Assembly: GCA_022562055.1 (NCBI GenBank)
Contig: JADFQA010000012.1
Coordinates: 14,483 to 78,482, forward strand
Direction: 5' to 3'
Source of the DNA: Acidobacteriota bacterium
Lineage (GTDB): Bacteria; Actinomycetota; Acidimicrobiia; Spongiisociales; UBA5794
DNA length: 64,000 nucleotides
Shown here: positions 11,189 through 64,000 of the stretch, piece after piece
Layout: the number at the start of each line of letters is the position of its first letter
Numbering within the stretch: the stretch's first letter is position 1
Translations under genes and position numbers: made by a program
Notes under the pieces: generated by a model
Seen by the model: only the letters and a program-made list of their open reading frames with translations
What the model was told of the DNA's origin: nothing
Databases searched by the model: none

Positions 11189-13012
11189 CTACTCGACGGT
11201 GACGCTCTTTGCGAGGTTGCGAGGCTGGTCTATGTCGTGACCACGCAGACGTGCCACATGGTACGCAAGAAGCTGCAGTGGTATCGCGGCAACGATCGGA
11301 CCGATCAGATCAGGCGCCGTGGGTATCCGCAGAACCAGGTCGGCCTCCCGCTCAATGTTGGTGTCGTCGTCGTATGCAACCGCGATGACGTGTGCGCCAC
11401 GAGCCTTTACCTCGGCAACAGCAGACATTGTCTTGTCGTACACGTCTCGCTGAGTCGCGACCGCAACGACAGGGACACCCGGGGTGATAAGAGCCAGTGT
11501 GCCGTGTTTCAGCTCGCCGGCGGGTAGTGCTTCGGAATGCAGGTATGAGACCTCCTTTAGCTTCAACGACGCCTCCATGGCGACCGCAAAATCGAGACCC
11601 CGCCCGATGAAGTAGCAGTCAGAGGCGTCAACGATCTGCTCGGCGGCGGCGATTGCAACATCTTCGCGTGCAAGGGCCTCTTCAATGTACGCGGGTAGAT
11701 GTTGGAGGCCGCGACCGATCTCGGCAGCTAAGGTTTGATCAACGTTGCCGCGAGCTTGACCAAGGTGCAGCGCCAGGAGATACTCGGCAACCAGCATCGC
11801 AACATATGCCTTGGTGGACGCGACTGAGATCTCTGGTCCGGCACGCGTGTACAGAATGTCGTCCGCACCGCGAGCCAGCGTCGACCCGACCACGTTGGTA
11901 AGCGCCAACATCCGGGATCCTTGACGCTGGGCGAGTCCCGCAGCGGCGAGGGTATCGGCGGTCTCGCCCGATTGCGACACTGCAACGGTTAGCGACTCAC
12001 TGCCGACGAGGGGGTCGCTGTAACGCATCTCGTGAGCGTATTCAACGTACGTTGGGATACGAAGCAGCTTGCGGAACAGCACCCCACCGACCAGTGCAGC
12101 GTGATACGCAGTGCCACATGCGGTGAACCAGACGGACTTGATCGACTGGGCGTAATCGGTGTCGAATGCAATATCCTCAAGCCATACGGAGCCGTCCTCA
12201 TCGAGGCGCCCGGCCAGAGTTTCCGATACCACGGTGGCCTGCTCGTGGATCTCCTTGAGCATGAAATGTTCGTAACCGCCCTTCTCCGCCATGCCCGCGT
12301 CCCAGTCGACGACAAACACTTCACGGTCTACCGGGTCGCCTGAGATCGTGGTTATGTGAGCACCGTCGTCGTCGACAACCACCATCTCACCGTCTTCGAT
12401 GATCAAGAACTTCCTCGTCCGATGCAGCACGGCTGGGATGTCGGACGCGATGAACGTCTCGCCGTCGCCGAGACCGATCACCATCGGCGACACCCTGCGC
12501 ACCGCGACGATCCTGCGCGGCTCGTACTCTGTCATCACGACCAGTGCGTACGCCCCCTCGGCCATGTCGACAACCGCTCGGACCGCGACAACAAGATCGC
12601 CGTCATACGCGTTCGCTACTAGGTGGGCGAGGATCTCGGTGTCGGTCTCTGAAGTGAACACATGACCTGTTTTGCGCAGCTCATCCCGCAGGGTCTGGTG
12701 ATTTTCAATGATGCCGTTGTGAACCACGACAAACTTGCCGCTCGCATCGGTGTGCGGGTGAGCGTTTGCGTCGCTCGGCACGCCATGGGTGGCCCAGCGC
12801 GTGTGGCCAATACCCACCGAACCAACCGGGTTGGCGTCGTCGATAACCGCCTGAAGCTTGTCGATCTTTCCCTGCGCCTTGAGCACCGATATCGACCCGT
12901 TAGTTACGGCGATCCCCGCCGAGTCATAACCCCGATACTCGAGCCGGCGCAGCCCGTCGAGAAGAATTTCTGCGGCCTCTTGAGGGCCGACATATCCCAT
13001 GATCCCGCACAT
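11189..13012 (-). CDS. glmS: Glutamine--fructose-6-phosphate aminotransferase
   Basis: MCGIMGY N-terminal nucleophile; two SIS domains; terminal VTVE. Confidence 0.96.
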   Translation of the reverse strand: MCGIMGYVGPQEAAEILLDGLRRLEYRGYDSAGIAVTNGSISVLKAQGKIDKLQAVIDDANPVGSVGIGHTRWATHGVPSDANAHPHTDASGKFVVVHNGIIENHQTLRDELRKTGHVFTSETDTEILAHLVANAYDGDLVVAVRAVVDMAEGAYALVVMTEYEPRRIVAVRRVSPMVIGLGDGETFIASDIPAVLHRTRKFLIIEDGEMVVVDDDGAHITTISGDPVDREVFVVDWDAGMAEKGGYEHFMLKEIHEQATVVSETLAGRLDEDGSVWLEDIAFDTDYAQSIKSVWFTACGTAYHAALVGGVLFRKLLRIPTYVEYAHEMRYSDPLVGSESLTVAVSQSGETADTLAAAGLAQRQGSRMLALTNVVGSTLARGADDILYTRAGPEISVASTKAYVAMLVAEYLLALHLGQARGNVDQTLAAEIGRGLQHLPAYIEEALAREDVAIAAAEQIVDASDCYFIGRGLDFAVAMEASLKLKEVSYLHSEALPAGELKHGTLALITPGVPVVAVATQRDVYDKTMSAVAEVKARGAHVIAVAYDDDTNIEREADLVLRIPTAPDLIGPIVAAIPLQLLAYHVARLRGHDIDQPRNLAKSVTVE

Positions 13013-13034: not shown

Positions 13035-13210
13035 GACTGAGTCGCCGCGCAGGGTTCCCCTGCTTCACATCGTTGCGGTCTTTGTTCCCAAAATCACTTC
13101 CAGGATATTCACCGCACCGTTTCGACCGTGAAAAGCCGAGAGAGCATCCGCCGAATCGTTCGATAACTCTCTTCCTCGTCACCTCGCCTAGGCGAGGCCT
13201 GGCGCTTCGT
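13035..13210 (-). ncRNA. glmS ribozyme (GlcN6P-responsive self-cleaving riboswitch) in the glmM-glmS intergenic region
   Basis: The minus-strand transcript carries the core blocks AGCGCC...GUGACGAGGAAGAGAGUUAUCGAA...UUCGGCGGAUGC...CGGCU...GGGAACAAAG, in the same order as the B. subtilis glmS ribozyme. Confidence 0.75.
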
Positions 13211-13270
13211 TACAGCACCGACCAGTCGTTTGAATTGTCACAGCAGTATAGGACGGCAACCGATATGTGA

Positions 13271-38910: not shown

Positions 38911-39541
38911 GTGCCTTCACCGCCTCGCGAATGATGACAAGGCCGCGTTTGTTGCCGGGCACTGCGCCTCTGACCATCAATAGGCCCCGATCAGCATCGA
39001 TCTTTGCAATCGTGAGGTTCATAGCTGTGCGTGTGTTACCACCCATGCGACCAGGCATACGCTTCCCCTTGTGGACACGGGCAGGTGTTGCACAGGCGCC
39101 GATCGACCCTGGTGCTCGGTGAACCCGATGTGCCCCATGGGAGGCGGGCATGCCCTTGAAGTTGTGGCGTTTCATCACCCCGGCAAATCCCTTGCCCTTG
39201 GTGACACCCGCAACGTCGATCTTCTGACCGACCTCGAACAGATCGGTGATCGATATCTCCTGACCGAGTGAGTACTGCGAAACGTCGTCGACACGAATTT
39301 CGACAATGTGCTTCGCCGGCGCAACACCCGACTTTGCGAAGTGGCCTGCTGTTGGGCGATTGACGTGACGCTCTGGCAACTCTTTGTATGCGATCTGGAT
39401 CGCCTCATACCCGTCGTTGTCCTGCGTTTTGATTTGTGTGACGTGAACGGGACCAGCCTTGATGATGGTCACCGGAATTACCCGGTTCTCATCATCGAAG
39501 ATCTGAGTCATGCCCAGCTTTTCGCCAAGAATCGCTTTCAC
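38903..39541 (-). CDS. rplC: 50S ribosomal protein L3
   Basis: Homology. Confidence 0.95.
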
Positions 39542-39849
39542 GTCTTGATCTCCACTTCAACCCCGGCGGGCAGATCGAGACGCATGAGAGCGTCCACTGT
39601 CTTTGGCGTCGGATCAAGAATGTCAATCAAACGCTTGTGGATACGTATCTCGAAGTGCTCGCGGCTCGTCTTATCGACATGCGGGCCACGGATGACGCAG
39701 TACCGGTGGATACGGGTCGGCAACGGAATCGGGCCCTTGATCTTCGCTTGGGTACGAATCACCGTTTCTGCAATTTTGCGCGCCGACTCATCAACCACTG
39801 AGTGGTCGTAGGCCTTGAGTCTGATCCGGATCCTGTGTTCGTTAGCCAT
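39538..39849 (-). CDS. rpsJ: 30S ribosomal protein S10
   Basis: Homology; 20 nt downstream of tuf. Confidence 0.96.
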
Positions 39850-39869
39850 GGTTCAGTAACTCCCAGTCC

Positions 39870-41060
39870 CTACTTGATGATTTTGGTGACTCGGCCGGCA
39901 CCAACAGTCCGCCCACCCTCACGAATAGCGAACCGCAACCCCTCATCCATAGCAATCGGATTAATCAACTCAACCGTCATCTCAGTGTTATCACCAGGCA
40001 TCACCATCTCCGTACCCTCAGGCAACGACACCGAACCAGTCACATCCGTCGTCCGAAAATAAAACTGCGGACGATACCCATCAAAAAACGGGTTCTGACG
40101 CCCACCCTCATTACGCGTCAACACATACACCTGAGCCTCAAACAACGTATGAGGAGTAATCGAACCCGGCGCCGCAATCACCTGACCACGCTCCACATCC
40201 TCCTTACCCGTCCCCCGCAACAACAACCCAACATTGTCACCAGCATGAGCCTCATCCAACAACTTACGAAACATCTCCACCCCAGTAACCGTCGTCTTCT
40301 GCAACGCCCGAATACCAACAATGTCAACCTCAGACGCAATCTTCAACCATCACTGCTCAACCCGCCCAGTCACCACAGTCCCCCGCCCAGTAATCGAAAA
40401 CACATCCTCAATCGGCATCAAAAACGGCTTATCCATATCCCGCTCAGGCAACAAAATGTACTCATCAACAGCCGCCATCAACTCCAAAACCTGAGCCGAA
40501 GCACCCTCATCACCCTCCAACGCCAACAACGCCGAACCACGAATCACCGGAACCTCATCACCCGGGAACTCATACTCCGACAACAACTCCCGAACCTCCA
40601 ACTCAACAAGATCCAACAACTCCTCATCATCCACCATGTCAACCTTATTCAAAAAGACAACAATCCGAGGAACCCCAACCTGCAACGCCAACAACACATG
40701 CTCACGCGTCTGCGGCATCGGACCATCAGCAGCCGACACCACCAAAATCGCACCATCAATCTGCGCAGCACCCGTAATCATATTCTTCACATAATCAGCA
40801 TGACCCGGCATATCAACATGCGCATAATGACGATTCACCGTCTCATACTCCACATGAGAAATCGCAATCGTAATACCACGCTCACGCTCCTCAGGAGCAT
40901 TATCAATCTCATCAAAAGCAGTGAACTGCGTCACCCCACCAACAGTCTCAGCCAACACCCGCGTAATCGCAGCAGTCAACGTCGTCTTCCCATGATCAAT
41001 ATGACCCATCGTCCCAACATTCACATGCGGCTTCACCCGCTCAAACTTCTCCTTAGCCAT
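39870..41060 (-). pseudogene. tuf: Elongation factor Tu, copy 1 (str operon position), interrupted by an in-frame TGA at 40350-40352; highly atypical codon usage
   Basis: The ORF track splits EF-Tu into 40350..41060 and 39870..40346. Copy 2 reads ...[15 protein letters not shown] where copy 1 reads ...[14 protein letters not shown]. Third codon positions are almost exclusively G or T. Confidence 0.85.
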
Positions 41061-41074
41061 AACGGCGACTCCTT

Positions 41075-43177
41075 CTATTCGCCACGAACCTTGGCAACAA
41101 TTTCTTGCGCCACGGTGCTCGGGACTTCTTGGTACGAATGAAACTGCATGCTGTAGCTGGCGCGACCTTTGGTTCGAGAACGAAGATCGCTCACGTAGCC
41201 AAACATCTCTGCCAGCGGCGTCAATGCATTGATGATTTTGATGGGTCCACGGGAATCCATGGACTCAACCTTTCCACGACGAGCGGAGATATCACCGATG
41301 ACATCTCCCAAGTGCTCTTCTGGTGTGACTACCTCGACCTCCATTATGGGTTCGAGAAGTTTTATGCCCGCCCGCTCGGCAGCCGCTTTGAGGGCCATTG
41401 AACCGGCGATTCGGAACGCCATCTCGTTCGAGTCCACGTTATGGCTCGAGCCGTCGATCAGCGTTGCCTTTAGGTCGACAAGCGGGAATCCCGCGAGAAC
41501 ACCGGCTTCGAGAACGTCGCGCATTCCTTTTTCTGCAGCGGGGATAAACTCGCGTGGAACGGACCCACCCTTGATTTTGTCGATGAATTCGAATCCTGAC
41601 CCCGGCGCACCTGGTTCAAGGTTGATAACGACGTGGCCGTACATACCGGAGCCACCGGTCTGCTTCTTCAGCTTGCCGTCAATCTTGGTAACTGCCCTTT
41701 TGATCGTCTCGCGATACGCGACCTGAGGCCGACCGACATCAGCCTCGACCTTGAACTCGCGTCGCAAACGGTCGACAAGGATATCGAGGTGCAGTTCGCC
41801 CATGCCTGCAATGATCGTCTGACCTGTCTCCTCGTCGGTGTGGACCACAAACGTCGGGTCTTCTTCGGCAAGACGCATGAGGCCTTCGCCGAGTTTGTCC
41901 TGAGCGGCCTTGTTCTTCGGCTCAATCGCCACCGAAATCACAGGATCGGGGAAGGTCATCGACTCGAGTTGGATCGGTGCGTCCTGAGCGGACAGGGTGT
42001 GCCCGGTCTTCGTTGCTTTCAACCCAACCGCCGCCACAATGTCACCGGTGCGAACCTCGTCAATATCCTCTTGCGTGTTTGCATGCATGCGCAGCAAACG
42101 TCCGAACCGCTCGCGCTTTCCGGTGGTCGCGTTCACGACGGTGTCGCCCCTCTTGGCCCACCCCGAGTACACGCGGAAGTAGGTGAGTTTCCCAACATAG
42201 GGATCGGACATGATCTTGAATGCCAACGCCGAGAATGGCTCGTCATCGCTCGGCTTGCGCTCGAGTATCTCGTCCTCTTTTCCTGGTCTGAAACCGGTCA
42301 TCGGGGGAACATCGAGCGGGCTTGGAAGATACATCACCACGCCGTCGAGGAGACCCTGGACGCCCTTGTTTTTGAGGGCAGATCCGAGAAGTACCGGTAC
42401 GAAATCGTGGTTGATGGTGCCTTTACGAATGGCCGCACGCAGCTCATCGGGGGTGATTTCCTCGTCAGAGAGATATTTCTCAAGGAGGTCGGCGTCCTCT
42501 GCCGCAACAATGTCGAGCAGCTTTGCGCGATACTCATCGGCCTGCTCCTGGAGCTCGGCCGGGATGTCTACAACGTCCCACTCTTTGCCGTCGTCGGTTT
42601 TGCCGTCGTCGGTGTCCCGATACACGATTGCTTTCATATCGACGAGGTCGATGGCGCCGGAAAAGTCACCCTCAACTCCCACCGGAATCTGAACGGCGAC
42701 TGGGTTACCACCGAGGCGATCGACAATCGAATCGATAGCGGCAAAGTAGTCTGCGCCGATCCGATCCATCTTGTTGATGAAGCAGATGCGGGGGACCCCG
42801 TACTTGTCGGCTTGACGCCATACAGTCTCTGACTGCGGCTCAACACCTGAGACCGCATCGAAAACCGCAACCGCGCCATCGAGAACACGAAGCGACCGCT
42901 CGACCTCGACCGTGAAATCGACGTGCCCAGGCGTATCAATAATGTTGATGGTGTGATCATCCCAAAGGCACGTGGTGGCGGCAGACGTAATAGTGATGCC
43001 GCGTTCCTGCTCCTGCTCCATCCAGTCCATGACAGCAGACCCCTCGTGGACCTCACCGATCTTGTACGTGCGACCGGTGTAGTAGAGGATCCGCTCTGTC
43101 ACTGTCGTCTTACCGGCATCGATGTGAGCCATGATGCCGATATTGCGAACCGTTTCGAGTTTCATACTGCGTGCCAT
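41075..43177 (-). CDS. fusA: Elongation factor G
   Basis: [10 protein letters not shown]-domain; 700 aa. Confidence 0.97.
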
Positions 43178-58135: not shown

Positions 58136-58167
58136 CTCTCGATTCACATGCAATCCTTCCTCGATGG

Positions 58168-58241
58168 GCAGGGGCGGTGGGATTCGAACCCACAACCTCT
58201 GGTTTTGGAGACCAGCGCTCTAGCCGTTAGAGCTACACCCC
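58168..58241 (-). tRNA. trnW: tRNA-Trp (anticodon CCA); 3' CCA not encoded
   Basis: AGGGGUGUAGCUCUAACGGCUAGAGCGCUGGUCUCCAAAACCAGAGGUUGUGGGUUCGAAUCCCACCGCCCCUG; cloverleaf with anticodon loop CUCCAAA. Confidence 0.9.
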
Positions 58242-58324
58242 TCTACGACTCGGAGCCGACGGGAGAGTATATGTTGCTTTGCCCGAAAGTGTAAAACCCT
58301 GGTTTGGCGTGCGGGAAACCTCTG

Positions 58325-61486: not shown

Positions 61487-61487
61487 C

Positions 61488-62750
61488 CGTTCTTGCGTCC
61501 AATAGTGCAGGATCCTGCGGTGGTCTCAAGTGGTGTGCGCGACGGGGTGACCTTTTTGAGGTGATTTTATGTCTCGTCCAAAGACCCCTTGGCGGGTAGC
61601 GCGGGTAGCGCTGTTTGAGTTGGCGAGGGGGGCGTCCATTGATGATGCTGCAACGGTGGCGGGGGTGTCTGCGCGTATGGTTGACCGGTTTGTCAACGAG
61701 TATGGGCGGATGACTATACGTGAAACAAAACCACGAGCTAACGCACTCACTTTCGGGGAACGCGAAGAGATATGGATGGGTATCCAACGTGGGGAGTCAA
61801 ACACTGTGCTGGCGCAACGGTTGGGAAGGTCCCGTTCAACAATCTGGCGGGAGATCACTAACAATGGTGGCCGTGAAGGCTATCGCATGTCCCGCGCCCA
61901 GGATCGTGCCCATCGACAGGGACGGCGCCAGCGTCCAACGTGGGTTGAGACTAGGCCGTGGCTGTGGGATGTCGTGGTTGGGTTGTTGCTTTACGAGAAG
62001 TGGTCACCCGAGCAGATCGCTCACCGGCTTCGCATAGAGCACCCCAATGATTCATCATGGTGGGTGTCACACGAAACGATTTATCAAGCTATCTACGTCC
62101 AAGCCAGAGGCGGGTTACGTGAAGAACTCATGGCCTGTCTGCGTAGCGGGCGCACGGCACGTAAACCGCAGCGTCGTGGAGTGACCACTGGGGGCAGGAT
62201 TACTTCAAAGGTGATGATCTCTCAACGACCTAGCGAGGTTGCTGATCGGGCTGTGCCCGGGCACTGGGAAGGAGACCTCATAGTTGGCAAAGGAAACAAA
62301 AGTTACGTTGCGACACTGGTGGAACGCACCACCCGGTTAGGGATACTCATCAAAATTGACTCCAAGGACGCCGGGCATGTTGCTCAACGCCTGAGTGAAC
62401 ATGTTCAGACACTCCCTACCCAGCTCTTCAAGACCCTCACCTGGGACCAGGGAACCGAACTTGCTGACCATGCCGTGTTCACTATCCGGACCGGGGTCCC
62501 TGTGTTCTTTTGTGACCCTCGTTCGCCGTGGCAACGCGGCTCTAACGAGAATTTCAACGGCCTCGTGAGGCAATTCCTCCCCAAAGGAACCGACCTCTCC
62601 CAACACTCCCAAGCCGACCTTGATGAATACGCCCGACTACTCAACAACCGACCACGTAAAACGCTTAACTGGGACAAACCAGCAGAGCAATACAACCAAC
62701 TCGTCGCGGCCACAGCTTGAAACCACCTGCACTATTGGACGCAAGAACGG
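61488..62750 (+). mobile_element. IS30-family insertion sequence with perfect 25-bp terminal inverted repeats
   Basis: IRL ccgttcttgcgtccaatagtgcagg (61488-61512) = revcomp of IRR (62726-62750); single transposase ORF inside. Confidence 0.9.
61569..62720 (+). CDS. IS30-family transposase (DDE)
   Basis: HTH N-terminus; HWEGD...integrase core; typical IS30 length (383 aa). Confidence 0.9.
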   Translation: MSRPKTPWRVARVALFELARGASIDDAATVAGVSARMVDRFVNEYGRMTIRETKPRANALTFGEREEIWMGIQRGESNTVLAQRLGRSRSTIWREITNNGGREGYRMSRAQDRAHRQGRRQRPTWVETRPWLWDVVVGLLLYEKWSPEQIAHRLRIEHPNDSSWWVSHETIYQAIYVQARGGLREELMACLRSGRTARKPQRRGVTTGGRITSKVMISQRPSEVADRAVPGHWEGDLIVGKGNKSYVATLVERTTRLGILIKIDSKDAGHVAQRLSEHVQTLPTQLFKTLTWDQGTELADHAVFTIRTGVPVFFCDPRSPWQRGSNENFNGLVRQFLPKGTDLSQHSQADLDEYARLLNNRPRKTLNWDKPAEQYNQLVAATA

Positions 62751-62758
62751 GGGCTTTG

Positions 62759-62920
62759 CTAGCGGGTCTCCTTGTGCATCACATGTTCGCGACACCACTT
62801 GCAGAACTTCTTGAGCTCAATACGCTCACGCGTGTTGGTCTTGTTCTTCGTTGTCACGTAGTTACGACGCTTGCATTTCTCGCAAGCCAAAGTAATCGGC
62901 GGTCTCTTGGCGGAGGCCAT
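62759..62920 (-). CDS. rpmG: 50S ribosomal protein L33 (53 aa; absent from the ORF track because under 60 aa)
   Basis: Manual translation: [53 protein letters not shown]; GAGAGGAA RBS. Confidence 0.85.
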
Positions 62921-63013: not shown

Positions 63014-64000
63014 CTACTTGATGATTTTGGTGACTCGGCCGGCACCAACAGTCCGCCCACCCTCACGAATAGCGAACCGCAACCCCTCATCCATAGCAAT
63101 CGGATTAATCAACTCAACCGTCATCTCAGTGTTATCACCAGGCATCACCATCTCCGTACCCTCAGGCAACGACACCGAACCAGTCACATCCGTCGTCCGA
63201 AAATAAAACTGCGGACGATACCCATCAAAAAACGGGTTCTGACGCCCACCCTCATTACGCGTCAACACATACACCTGAGCCTCAAACAACGTATGAGGAG
63301 TAATCGAACCCGGCGCCGCAATCACCTGACCACGCTCCACATCCTCCTTACCCGTCCCCCGCAACAACAACCCAACATTGTCACCAGCATGAGCCTCATC
63401 CAACAACTTACGAAACATCTCCACCCCAGTAACCGTCGTCTTCTGCAACGCCCGAATACCAACAATGTCAACCTCAGACCCAATCTTCAACAACCCCTGC
63501 TCAACCCGCCCAGTCACCACAGTCCCCCGCCCAGTAATCGAAAACACATCCTCAATCGGCATCAAAAACGGCTTATCCATATCCCGCTCAGGCAACAAAA
63601 TATATTCATCAACAGCCGCCATCAACTCCAAAACCTGAGCCGAAGCACCCTCATCACCCTCCAACGCCAACAACGCCGAACCACGAATCACCGGAACCTC
63701 ATCACCCGGGAACTCATACTCCGACAACAACTCCCGAACCTCCAACTCAACAAGATCCAACAACTCCTCATCATCCACCATGTCAACCTTATTCAAAAAG
63801 ACAACAATCCGAGGAACCCCAACCTGCAACGCCAACAACACATGCTCACGCGTCTGCGGCATCGGACCATCAGCAGCCGACACCACCAAAATCGCACCAT
63901 CAATCTGCGCAGCACCCGTAATCATATTCTTCACATAATCAGCATGACCCGGCATATCAACATGCGCATAATGACGATTCACCGTCTCATACTCCACATG
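63014..64000 (-). CDS. tuf: Elongation factor Tu, copy 2 (intact over the visible part; 5' end beyond the window); nearly identical at DNA level to copy 1 and with the same atypical codon usage
   Basis: 63014..63997 ORF; DNA identical to 39870..40333 and onward apart from the 4-nt cluster and 2 synonymous sites. Confidence 0.9.

Follow-up and report, generated by a model that had tools for sequence, protein, structure and literature searches.

Near-exclusive G/T-ending codon usage in duplicated tuf genes of several bacterial phyla and its possible origin in keto-biased gene conversion

Codon usage of the two tuf copies

The two tuf genes of the analyzed genome are written almost exclusively in codons ending in G or T, and comparable tuf genes were found in several phyla; the bias is natural, heritable and recurrent. 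We suggest that it may be driven by a strand-asymmetric, keto-biased gene conversion between the two tuf copies, an explanation to which we give about an even chance. The features of the window (the whole 64-kb stretch of DNA that was analyzed) on which this description is based are as follows.

39870..41060, minus strand: str-operon copy of tuf (copy 1; order fusA-tuf-rpsJ), encoding EF-Tu in 396 codons followed by TAG; assigned by translation, GT3 0.95
39900..41057, minus strand: codons 2-387 of copy 1, forming the keto-biased tract; nearly all third positions G/T, Leu = TTG
39870..39899, minus strand: native 3' tail of copy 1 (codons 388-396 and the stop codon), in which C/A-ending codons are kept
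63014..64000, minus strand: tuf copy 2, codons 69-396 plus stop, upstream of rpmG, with the 5' part beyond the window end
39866..41076, minus strand: repeat unit common to copies 1 and 2, made up of the CDS with 16 nt of the 5' UTR (RBS included) and 4 nt past the stop
41075..43177, minus strand: fusA, directly upstream of copy 1; ordinary codons, GT3 0.49
39538..39849, minus strand: rpsJ, 20 nt downstream of copy 1; ordinary codons, GT3 0.55
62759..62920, minus strand: rpmG, downstream of copy 2; ordinary codons, GT3 0.60

The identity of the gene product is supported by the presence of the Pfam domains GTP_EFTU, EFTU_D2 and EFTU_D3 (PF00009, PF03144, PF03143) in the identical protein P0001, and by 85-88% identity to the EF-Tu proteins of Acidimicrobiia. 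The third positions of copy 1 comprise 209 G, 169 T, 16 C and 3 A residues (fraction of G or T, GT3, of 0.95). Copy 2, located between a gene for an M48 peptidase (at some distance) and rpmG, is 99.4% identical to copy 1; it is intact, has the same GT3 (0.95) and terminates in the same native tail (63014..63043). Its full-length form is present in L002.

An earlier reading, made from the sequence alone (the sequence-only reading), had claimed this near-exclusive use of G/T-ending codons for both copies and had proposed a comparison with fusA, rpoB and the ribosomal protein genes. The comparison placed tuf far outside their range: the GT3 of the 46 other long ORFs of the window is 0.40-0.62 (mean 0.513, sd 0.039), from which tuf departs with z≈11 (binomial P≈4e-85). 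The claim that leucine is encoded by TTG was likewise borne out (TTG 33, CTT 1, CTG 0); in fusA, rpoB and the ribosomal protein genes this amino acid is encoded mostly by CTC.

In both copies the biased tract starts at codon 2 and halts nine codons before the stop codon, precisely where the sequence-only reading had set its limits. With the exception of a TGA at codon 237 (see below), the body of copy 1 contains only 10 codons that do not end in G or T. All of them end in C, and approximately six, as read from the alignment, sit at the same positions in L006, a 94% identical relative. The tail of copy 1 is composed of almost the same codons as the tails of unbiased orthologues (e.g. L084). Assemblies are interrupted by this repeat right at the limits of tuf. 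Two contigs containing solely tuf (L003 and L004; 1,211 nt) terminate exactly at the ends of the repeat unit.

Antisense ORF, in-frame TGA and IS element

Two further features were recorded within or across copy 1.

40149..41141, plus strand: antisense ORF of 330 aa, a by-product of the NNK sense codons according to a frame calculation from the coordinates
40336..40352, minus strand: substitution cluster of copy 1, four substitutions (G237*, L238W, G242A) including an in-frame TGA

Sense codons of the NNK type are read as MNN on the opposite strand, and a stop codon is therefore impossible in the codon-aligned antisense frame. The long antisense ORF, rightly called spurious in the sequence-only reading, is thus a by-product of this frame, and its interpretation as a functional gene was rejected on this ground.

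The TGA, overlooked in that reading, is codon 237 of copy 1 (40350..40352). This triplet and three more substitutions, all within 17 nt, make up the four differences, and the only ones, in a 7,191-nt comparison with the independent assembly L001, in which both tuf copies are intact. The cluster is probably an assembly or strain blemish. Alignment with a conserved glycine suggested that TGA might be recoded to Gly (code 25). This was rejected, because copy 2 and the independent assembly carry GGG at this position and nothing but the cluster differs across 7.2 kb.

An IS element present in the window, as a further DNA of the repeat type, also displays an end-polar keto skew at third positions, which would agree with a conversion bias. 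A look-up of its transposase matched only the same insertion site.

Natural origin of the biased genes

The NNK-like codon set, the TAG stop codon and the sharp borders of the tract give the gene a designed appearance, and the sequence-only reading had listed among its candidates a synthetic or recoded CDS, as well as a horizontal exchange of the tuf body with that of an extremely keto-skewed donor. We consider both of these, and an assembly artefact, to be refuted, with only a negligible chance left to them. The same biased sequence was recovered in independent short- and long-read assemblies originating from different samples, and the gene has diverged naturally: L006, the nearest other lineage (GT3 0.94), differs from it in 8.6% of nucleotides (91.4% identity). 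Natural variants, diverged relatives, a native tail and conserved exceptions are not the properties of a synthetic NNK gene. As regards a donor, the encoded protein nests among the EF-Tu proteins of Acidimicrobiia, its 88% relatives being encoded by ordinary C/G-ending codons.

Among the 66 synonymous differences between the source genome and L006, 43 are exchanges between G and T, and in a Deinococcota-type pair 28 G<->T differences were found vs 9 C<->T. Substitutions in the biased lineages thus turn over within {G,T}. The copies of L001/L002 are 100% identical to each other.

Recurrence in several phyla

A scan with the K-degenerate pattern, covering the genomes of 185,579 species, matched 76 loci, nearly all of which have a gene-wide GT3 of 0.72-1.00 (most >0.84; approximately 75 biased tuf genes). 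They originate from Acidimicrobiia, Trueperaceae, an alphaproteobacterium, WOR-3 and Desulfobacterota-type MAGs. In the loci checked the neighboring genes are normal, none having such a usage. Leucine is encoded nearly exclusively by TTG in all of the biased tuf genes, and T is used freely in those of lower-GC genomes. The GT3 of ordinary tuf genes is 0.35-0.69 in a background set of 47, a sample from a FusA metagenome scan that was aimed at the str operons of close unbiased relatives and returned only relatives at ≤69% identity, and 0.50 in the tuf of E. coli.

In each phylum the biased EF-Tu proteins are typical of that phylum, which also speaks against a keto-skewed donor. The spread of a single cassette between phyla by horizontal transfer was rejected on the basis of protein lengths and identities. 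The literature library searched contained no description of a G/T bias of tuf, and no report of a compositional or strand bias of tuf conversion.

Association of the bias with duplication and with the repeat borders

The bias is associated with the possession of two tuf copies. Two biased copies are present in 14 of the 15 complete chromosomes carrying biased tuf (the complete chromosomes include OZ242375, OZ241369, CP070705 and OY762464); in the remaining one (WOR-3) there was one match only. Among the 86-88% relatives, the lineages with two identical copies are all biased (3/3) and those with a single place, represented by 8 genomes, are all unbiased (5/5; Fisher p=0.018), where "single copy" denotes one place encoding the exact protein, so that a divergent second copy is possible, and where the lineages are few and phylogenetically clustered and the unbiased relatives are also higher in GC. 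In a FusA protein search, long contigs with unbiased tuf were absent from the matches listed. Duplication is not sufficient, since E. coli has duplicated tuf genes without the bias, as does Thermus.

The copies behave as expected of a pair evolving in concert, in that they occupy different contexts and paralogues are more alike than orthologues. Identity between them stops 16 nt before the CDS and 4 nt after it, and the differences between copies are concentrated at the repeat edges (24 of 39 vs 4.3 expected; p=4e-14).

The bias is confined to this inter-copy repeat, including the shared UTRs: G and T constitute 69% of the shared 5' UTRs vs 44% of the non-homologous flanks. It is also polar, being strongest at the 5' end. 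In the biased lineages it fades across the last 4-25 codons, in which ancestral codons survive, and the longer the 3' homology, the shorter is this unbiased tail (Spearman rho -0.60, p=0.006). In L089/L090, with 157 nt of 3' homology, the bias extends up to the stop codon and past it. In the mosaic gene L064, GT3 is 1.0 over approximately 240 codons and then falls to 0. In some lineages a tract composed only of A and C directly follows the stop codon, such non-coding tracts being specific to one clade. The A/C-rich tail was considered as a skew of opposite polarity, which was rejected, as its coding part consists of ancestral C-ending codons.

The force acts on nucleotides and not on wobble decoding. 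First codon positions are shifted (K1 0.62 vs 0.53), amino-acid replacements proceed toward G/T-richer codons in 20-24 cases vs 3-5 away from them, and the start codon of L008/L009 is GTG. These observations bear directly on a possible selection at the level of translation, in which G/U-ending codons would be favored in EF-Tu synthesis through the tRNA and wobble repertoire or through autoregulation. Such selection would account for a bias that is clearest at third positions and begins at codon 2. It is largely refuted and we regard it as very improbable: the ribosomal protein genes, fusA and rpoB draw on the same tRNA pool but have the opposite codons, TTG is preferred to CTG and CTT, which likewise have G or T at the third position, the bias includes the shared UTRs, which are not translated, the shift extends to first and second positions, and the final codons are exempt.

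Mutation as a possible source of the bias

A strand-specific mutational footprint was also considered, in which C->T and A->G deamination would affect the exposed non-template strand (in transcription bubbles, R-loops or the displaced strand of a D-loop), with purifying selection filtering the changes and conversion spreading them. A deaminase-like footprint had been suggested in the sequence-only reading, and with respect to direction the suggestion holds, as the coding strand has changed exactly from A/C to G/T. One would also expect tuf to be transcribed more than any other gene; moreover, exposure in a D-loop would depend on two copies and would not extend past the homology, as observed.

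The part of the suggestion that did not hold is a one-off event. At four-fold sites with ancestral C, 43 changes to G were found vs 59 to T (although long-term G<->T turnover could blur this ratio), G<->T transversions are ongoing, and the tract does not leave the inter-copy repeat and is tied to the presence of two copies, points that the sequence-only reading had left out of account. Furthermore, the co-transcribed fusA and rpsJ are untouched, as that reading had pointed out, which rules out operon-wide transcription-coupled mutation as the cause. Equally expressed single-copy orthologues are unbiased and the native 3' tail is likewise transcribed. If mutation pressure were the sole cause, it would need to run 20- to 100-fold above the reverse rate, and only within a tract of 1.2 kb. 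We therefore consider this explanation improbable.

Proposed keto-biased gene conversion and possible selection on the mRNA

In the explanation that we favor, keto-biased conversion, the str-operon copy and the rpmG-proximal copy would evolve in concert, with variants carrying G or T on the coding strand spreading to both copies and those carrying A or C being lost. Over time, all free positions in the efficiently converted part of the repeat would become G or T, that is third positions, first positions of leucine codons, bases of the shared UTRs and, in extreme lineages, tolerated amino-acid positions, while G and T would remain interchangeable. The last 20-60 nt before the end of the 3' homology would seldom be converted and would keep their ancestral codons.

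Since G or T is preferred on one strand, the process requires strand asymmetry. This might arise if heteroduplexes form mainly with one strand polarity, for example by template switching or nascent-strand gap repair copied from the coding strand. The G/T, G/G and T/T mismatches may then be recognized, and rejected or corrected, by repair of the NucS/EndoMS type (a candidate), with A/C, A/A and C/C mismatches escaping repair and segregating. Weak translational selection in slow-growing uncultured lineages could let such a drive win. The preference of RecA for GT-rich single-stranded DNA was set aside as the driver, because in standard models the RecA-coated strand is that of the recipient, and G/T would thus be disfavored.

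The candidate role of NucS/EndoMS-type discrimination of keto/keto mismatches is suggested by the class of the bias, as the bases favored on one strand are precisely G and T, which replace each other freely. The mismatches cut by EndoMS/NucS are limited to G/T, G/G and T/T (PMC6159521). Among bacteria the enzyme is confined to Actinobacteria (Acidimicrobiia among them) and Deinococcus-Thermus, where it prevents homeologous recombination (PMC5290159). The most extreme bias was found in precisely these two phyla. This range covers the Acidimicrobiia and Trueperaceae. It does not extend to the alphaproteobacterium, WOR-3 and the Desulfobacterota-type MAGs, in which NucS is not known to occur (PMC5290159), and the NucS sub-model therefore cannot be general.

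The conversion bias itself we infer from the tuf sequences. To produce a GT3 of 0.95-1.0 it would need to be near-absolute (approximately 90% or more). The bias reaches the 5' border of homology without a margin, for which a polar mechanism would be needed.

The G/T-rich UTRs and the amino-acid shifts would equally be predicted by selection on the composition of the tuf mRNA or DNA, with conversion merely keeping the copies identical. A transcript poor in C and A and rich in G and U could avoid Rho loading (rut) sites, endonucleases acting at C or A/C motifs, or folding. The biased mRNA contains 14% C vs 33% in unbiased orthologues (C/G ratio 0.37 vs 0.97) and its predicted folding is weaker (-43 vs -58 kcal per 150 nt); NNK coding removes every trinucleotide composed only of A and C, e.g. 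ACA, and CTG is replaced by TTG. Selection would lead one to expect convergence in several phyla, and the A/C-only tract that follows the stop codon in some lineages could be a Rho loading site.

Such selection gives no reason why the equally abundant ribosomal protein and fusA mRNAs on the same transcript are spared, and it leaves unexplained the link with two copies, the unbiased single-copy orthologues and the exemption of the last 4-25 codons unless the 3' homology is long. Selection on a bulk property should show diminishing returns, so that a GT3 of 0.99-1.00 and overridden conserved EF-Tu residues are not expected. Avoidance of Rho would favor G over T, yet T is common in lower-GC genomes. 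We consider selection on the mRNA unlikely, albeit with a real chance of being correct.

Keto-biased conversion may have a wider meaning. We propose tentatively, and at somewhat less than an even chance, that it represents an unrecognized recombination drive of bacteria, in which unequal recognition of keto/keto and amino/amino mismatches rewrites duplicated genes and other repeats in a strand-asymmetric manner. The drive would depend on NucS/EndoMS in Actinomycetota and Deinococcota, and elsewhere perhaps on a weaker preference of MutS for G/T over A/C, and would be strong enough to alter a start codon and conserved EF-Tu residues.

Were conversion indeed the driver, a new evolutionary force would act on bacterial repeats, distinct from GC-biased gene conversion (gBGC) and with a signature readable from genomes, and the biochemical specificity of the non-canonical mismatch repair enzyme would be tied to a genome-scale outcome. 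A highly conserved and highly expressed gene would have been pushed off its preferred codons non-adaptively, even to the point of amino-acid change, and the biased tuf genes would preserve a natural record of how conversion is oriented in vivo and how far its tracts extend. Should the bias be adaptive at the RNA level instead, it would point to an unknown vulnerability of the tuf mRNA. There are also practical consequences: tuf often serves as a marker in phylogenetics and barcoding, and convergent composition across phyla will mislead nucleotide trees and binning, while expression predictors based on codon usage will misjudge tuf in biased lineages.

Comparison with known systems

Concerted evolution of tufA and tufB by gene conversion is known (Lathe & Bork 2001; Abdulkarim & Hughes 1996; PMC5485169; PMC6053082); six phyla provide documented examples, Actinobacteria and Deinococcus-Thermus among them. 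The genes analyzed here resemble these systems in having two copies in the classical contexts (the str operon and the rpmG/secE-nusG side), with near-identity over the CDS only and differences at the edges. They differ in codon usage, as the described genes keep the normal (optimal) usage of their genomes, that of E. coli being an example.

Keto-biased conversion would share with gBGC the character of a non-adaptive, recombination-tied drive that generates synonymous changes, extreme composition and forced amino-acid changes. In contrast to gBGC, which favors G:C on either strand, tuf favors G or T on one strand (keto vs amino), and there is no strand-symmetric rise in G+C, the GC3 of tuf (0.57) being lower than that of its neighbors (0.61-0.74).

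The skews linked with replication and transcription (the keto-rich leading strand; the heavy strand of vertebrate mtDNA, with the G/T-rich codons of ND6) have the same chemical direction, with C->T and A->G changes on the exposed or less-repaired strand. Such skews extend over replichores, transcription units or entire genomes, with a modest amplitude in bacteria, whereas that of tuf is limited to 1.2 kb, near-saturating and absent from the neighbors. Transcription-associated asymmetry is not what was found, given the normal fusA, rpsJ and single-copy orthologues and the native state of the transcribed 3' tail.

The substrate range of NucS/EndoMS (G/T, G/G, T/T) is the keto/keto class, and the enzyme suppresses homeologous recombination (PMC6159521, PMC5290159). 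It has no described role in biased conversion, and the weaker cases of the bias occur in phyla without known NucS.

Finally, in the repeat-induced point mutation (RIP) of fungi, as in tuf, duplicated DNA is rewritten by directional changes limited to the repeat. RIP introduces C->T changes on both strands, which make the DNA AT-rich and inactivate the genes, whereas the change in tuf is strand-specific, includes A->G and C->G, raises G as well as T, and leaves the ORF intact and the protein conserved.

Codon usage of the tuf genes

The gene order in the window (58.6% G+C) is Actinobacteria-like: groEL, alr, glmS, glmM, truA, rpoA, the spc and S10 operons, rpsJ, tuf and fusA, followed by rpsG, rpsL, rpoC, rpoB, rplL, rplJ, rplA, rplK, nusG, secE, an IS element, rpmG and a second tuf gene. 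The relevant features are:

39870..41060, minus strand: tuf copy 1 (third positions G 209, T 169, C 16, A 3)
63014..64000: tuf copy 2, its 5′ part beyond the window end; 99.4% identical to copy 1 and equally biased
61487..62750: IS30-like element bounded by perfect terminal inverted repeats of 25 nt; its insertion site separates a DUF4015 gene from rpmG
61569..62720, plus strand: transposase ORF of this element (HTH_38 and rve)
13062..13217, minus strand: glmS ribozyme (Rfam RF00234, 96.8 bits), upstream of glmS (11189..13012)
58167..58242, minus strand: tRNA-Trp (CCA), upstream of secE/nusG; the sole tRNA gene in the 64 kb

The preference for G/T-ending codons in tuf, described in a sequence-only reading, proved to be real. 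The G/T fraction at third codon positions (GT3) lies approximately 11 sd from that of 46 other ORFs of the window (0.40–0.62, mean 0.513, sd 0.039; binomial P≈4e-85). All two-fold codon families have moved to the G or T codon, and Leu is encoded by TTG (33 codons) and CTT (1), with CTG absent (0). As that reading had also stated, the bias extends in both copies from codon 2 to 9 codons before the stop and is not shared by the neighbours: fusA, rpoB and twelve ribosomal protein genes use mostly CTC for Leu, and the ribosomal protein genes of the window are without special codon bias. The antisense ORF, which it had considered spurious, is a by-product of the reading frame, and an antisense-gene explanation was rejected on this ground.

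In tuf copy 1, four substitutions within 17 nt (40336..40352) create an in-frame TGA at codon 237 (G237*, L238W, G242A). Over 7,191 nt, nothing else distinguishes this sequence from that of the same population assembled independently, in which both tuf copies are intact; the cluster therefore probably reflects an error made in assembling the repeat, or a variant carried by a minor strain, and TGA recoding was rejected. The EF-Tu of the window (39870..41060) lacks cysteine altogether: Met stands in place of the widely conserved Cys in the DCPGH motif, and Val in place of that in NKCD.

Natural origin and recurrence of the bias

The exact EF-Tu of the window is present in public databases as a MAG protein, and its biased DNA was recovered in no fewer than four further assemblies of other samples, which led us to reject an assembly artefact. 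Among these are 1,211-nt tuf-only contigs whose ends coincide exactly with the repeat borders, which is the signature of a collapsed repeat. Given these separate assemblies and a diverged natural relative, an EF-Tu from a hydrothermal-vent metagenome (94% identical, GT3 0.94), the synthetic or recoded gene envisaged in the sequence-only reading had to be abandoned.

We scanned one genome per species (185,579 species) for the motif GHADY(V/I)KNMITGAAQ encoded by G/T-ending codons. Matches were obtained at 76 loci, in all but one of which the gene-wide GT3 was 0.72–1.00 (most >0.84); a background set of 47 ordinary tuf genes, taken from str operons in metagenomes, spans 0.35–0.69, and the E. coli gene, which uses CTG for Leu, has a GT3 of 0.50. 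The matches comprised many Acidimicrobiia (including Ca. Spongiisociaceae), Trueperaceae, one complete alphaproteobacterial chromosome, WOR-3, and MAGs of Desulfobacterota type and of Syntrophomonadaceae. Leu is TTG almost exclusively in every biased lineage, even at 69% G+C, and the genes adjoining tuf have normal usage in the loci examined.

EF-Tu comprises 405 aa in Trueperaceae and 399–403 aa elsewhere, and these proteins share 65–79% identity with that of the window. These phylum-typical lengths and identities indicate that the bias arose repeatedly, and its convergence across phyla is well supported. For the same reason, and because an Acidimicrobiia relative at 88% identity is unbiased (GT3 0.44), the proposed horizontal replacement of the tuf body was dismissed. 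The biased tuf is thus real, natural and more general than was apparent from the window.

Some taxonomic labels look unreliable (those of the window EF-Tu and of loci L069 and L065): the source of the former is named 'Acidobacteria bacterium', yet its relatives are all Acidimicrobiia, and L069, a 4.4-kb contig labelled Kiloniellales with an Acidimicrobiia-like FusA tail, is probably a mis-binned Acidimicrobiia contig.

Repeat borders and polarity

The inter-copy repeat consists of the CDS with 0–33 nt upstream and usually 0–15 nt downstream. Short-read assemblies are routinely broken at duplicated tuf: contigs start or end exactly at the repeat borders in L003, L004, L006, L012, L020, L034, L040, L047, L048 and L075, and L005 is a chimeric join of the copy-2 upstream flank and the copy-1 downstream flank. 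Of 39 differences between copies, 24 lie within the first 30 or last 100 nt, where 4.3 would be expected (p=4e-14).

Non-G/T codons are concentrated in the last 4–25 codons of the biased genes, and these 3′ tails match unbiased orthologues almost codon for codon and are therefore ancestral sequence. The longer the 3′ homology, the fewer of the last 25 codons fall outside G/T (Spearman rho -0.60, p=0.006; the lineages are not independent). In L089/L090, where homology reaches 157 nt beyond the stop, the bias continues as far as the stop codon, beyond which G/T makes up 29 of the first 38 non-coding bases, as counted from the sequence. Shared 5′ UTR segments are 69% G/T vs 44% for non-homologous flanks. 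Weaker cases have a strong 5′ bias fading 3′-ward, and in the mosaic gene L064 GT3 is 1.0 over ~240 codons and then decays to 0. That the bias is polar and bounded by the repeat is therefore well supported.

The window contains only one further stretch of repeat-type DNA, the IS30-like element. Its third-position G/T content is 0.82 over the first 40–50 codons and 0.20 over the last 60; neither value falls within the span of 0.25–0.775 observed for 42 ordinary genes (1,222 windows), a hint of repeat-linked keto bias.

In one Acidimicrobiia clade (L012, L015, L018, L041, L058) the tuf stop is directly followed by a 13–25 nt A/C-only tract (e.g. ccaccacacaacaaa), partly common to both copies, which may serve in Rho loading or as a translation enhancer of the next gene, or may represent a skew of opposite polarity.

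Link to gene duplication

Two biased tuf copies were present in 14 of the 15 complete chromosomes matched by the motif scan, the exception being one WOR-3 chromosome with a single match. Among EF-Tu relatives at 86–88% identity on long contigs, three lineages with two loci for the protein (fusA-tuf and M48...tuf-rpmG) are biased (0.95, 0.96, 0.91), and five lineages (eight genomes) encoding it at one place, beside rpmG, are unbiased (0.41–0.47; Fisher p=0.018, with lineages few and related). 'One place' reflects an exact-protein look-up, compatible with a divergent second copy, and the unbiased one-place genomes are higher in G+C. In E. coli, tuf is duplicated yet unbiased.

Selection for a C/A-poor tuf mRNA would fit the composition (C 14% in biased genes vs 33% in unbiased orthologues; C/G 0.37 vs 0.97), the weaker folding of the biased mRNA and the biased UTRs, but it explains neither the restriction to tuf and the link with copy number nor the homology-dependent tail and the saturation.

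Substitution pattern

Between the two biased lineages of the window and of its 94% relative, third-position G<->T transversions account for 43 of the 66 synonymous codon differences and transitions for only 14; a Deinococcota-type pair gave 28 G<->T vs 9 C<->T. The sites keep changing yet remain within {G,T}, and the bias is thus an ongoing constraint, not a one-off footprint. At four-fold sites, comparison with the unbiased relative revealed 59 C->T and 43 C->G changes. The deaminase-like footprint suggested in the sequence-only reading, i.e. deamination of single-stranded DNA, predicts the direction of change correctly, but fails on the C->G changes, the unaffected co-transcribed neighbours and the unbiased single-copy orthologues.

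The G/T content is also raised at first (0.62 vs 0.53 in unbiased genes) and second positions (0.50 vs 0.47), and in the most extreme clade 20–24 amino acid replacements relative to the unbiased consensus lead to G/T-richer codons and 3–5 away. In the most extreme lineages (L008/L009 and relatives) the N-terminus MAKEKFER has become VGKVRFER, the start codon is GTG and the 5′ UTR spacer is purely G/T (gggggtgtttggtt). These shifts, together with the TTG preference and the biased non-coding UTRs, exclude a wobble/tRNA explanation, and a translation-level reading was rejected; action of the force at the nucleotide level is well supported.

Biased gene conversion as a possible mechanism

The simplest and best-supported account is biased, strand-asymmetric gene conversion between the copies, to which we give an even chance of being correct. 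Full-text literature searches for G/T-ending tuf genes or keto-biased conversion returned no description of either. With two copies, G/T-ward fixation would exceed fixation in the A/C direction by a factor of (1+b)/(1-b), b being the strength of the conversion bias, so that a GT3 of 0.95–1.0 would need b of ~0.9 or more.

A candidate for so sharp a discriminator, and a testable lead, is NucS/EndoMS, which cleaves DNA at mismatches of the G/T, G/G and T/T types, leaves A/C, A/A and C/C uncut (PMC6159521), and suppresses homeologous recombination (PMC5290159). Bacterial NucS/EndoMS is found only in Actinobacteria, one Acidimicrobiia species among them, and in Deinococcus-Thermus (PMC5290159), the same two groups in which the tuf bias is strongest. 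The model supposes that, in the heteroduplex, the coding strand of the resident copy is mainly paired with a complementary strand from the donor, as would result e.g. from template switching or gap repair of a nascent strand copied from the coding strand (the lagging strand, if the gene is co-oriented with replication). A resident G/T opposite a donor A/C allele would then give a keto/keto mismatch, which would be removed, and a resident A/C opposite a donor G/T allele would give an amino/amino mismatch, which would pass unseen and segregate; in both situations G/T would prevail on the coding strand. The invading strand, if it enters at the 3′ end of the gene, would have to run through some homology before switching, hence the 3′ margin, and coverage rising 5′-ward would produce the gradient.

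The NucS model leaves the alphaproteobacterial, WOR-3 and Desulfobacterota-type cases unexplained; for these, a weaker asymmetry of MutS (better recognition of G/T than of A/C) would be needed. Nor does it account for the unaffected E. coli, unless strong translational selection opposes the drive there.

The tuf paralogues are a classic case of bacterial concerted evolution, known from six phyla, two of which are Actinobacteria and Deinococcus-Thermus (PMC6053082). The tuf conversion tracts of Salmonella are bounded by the gene (PMC5485169).
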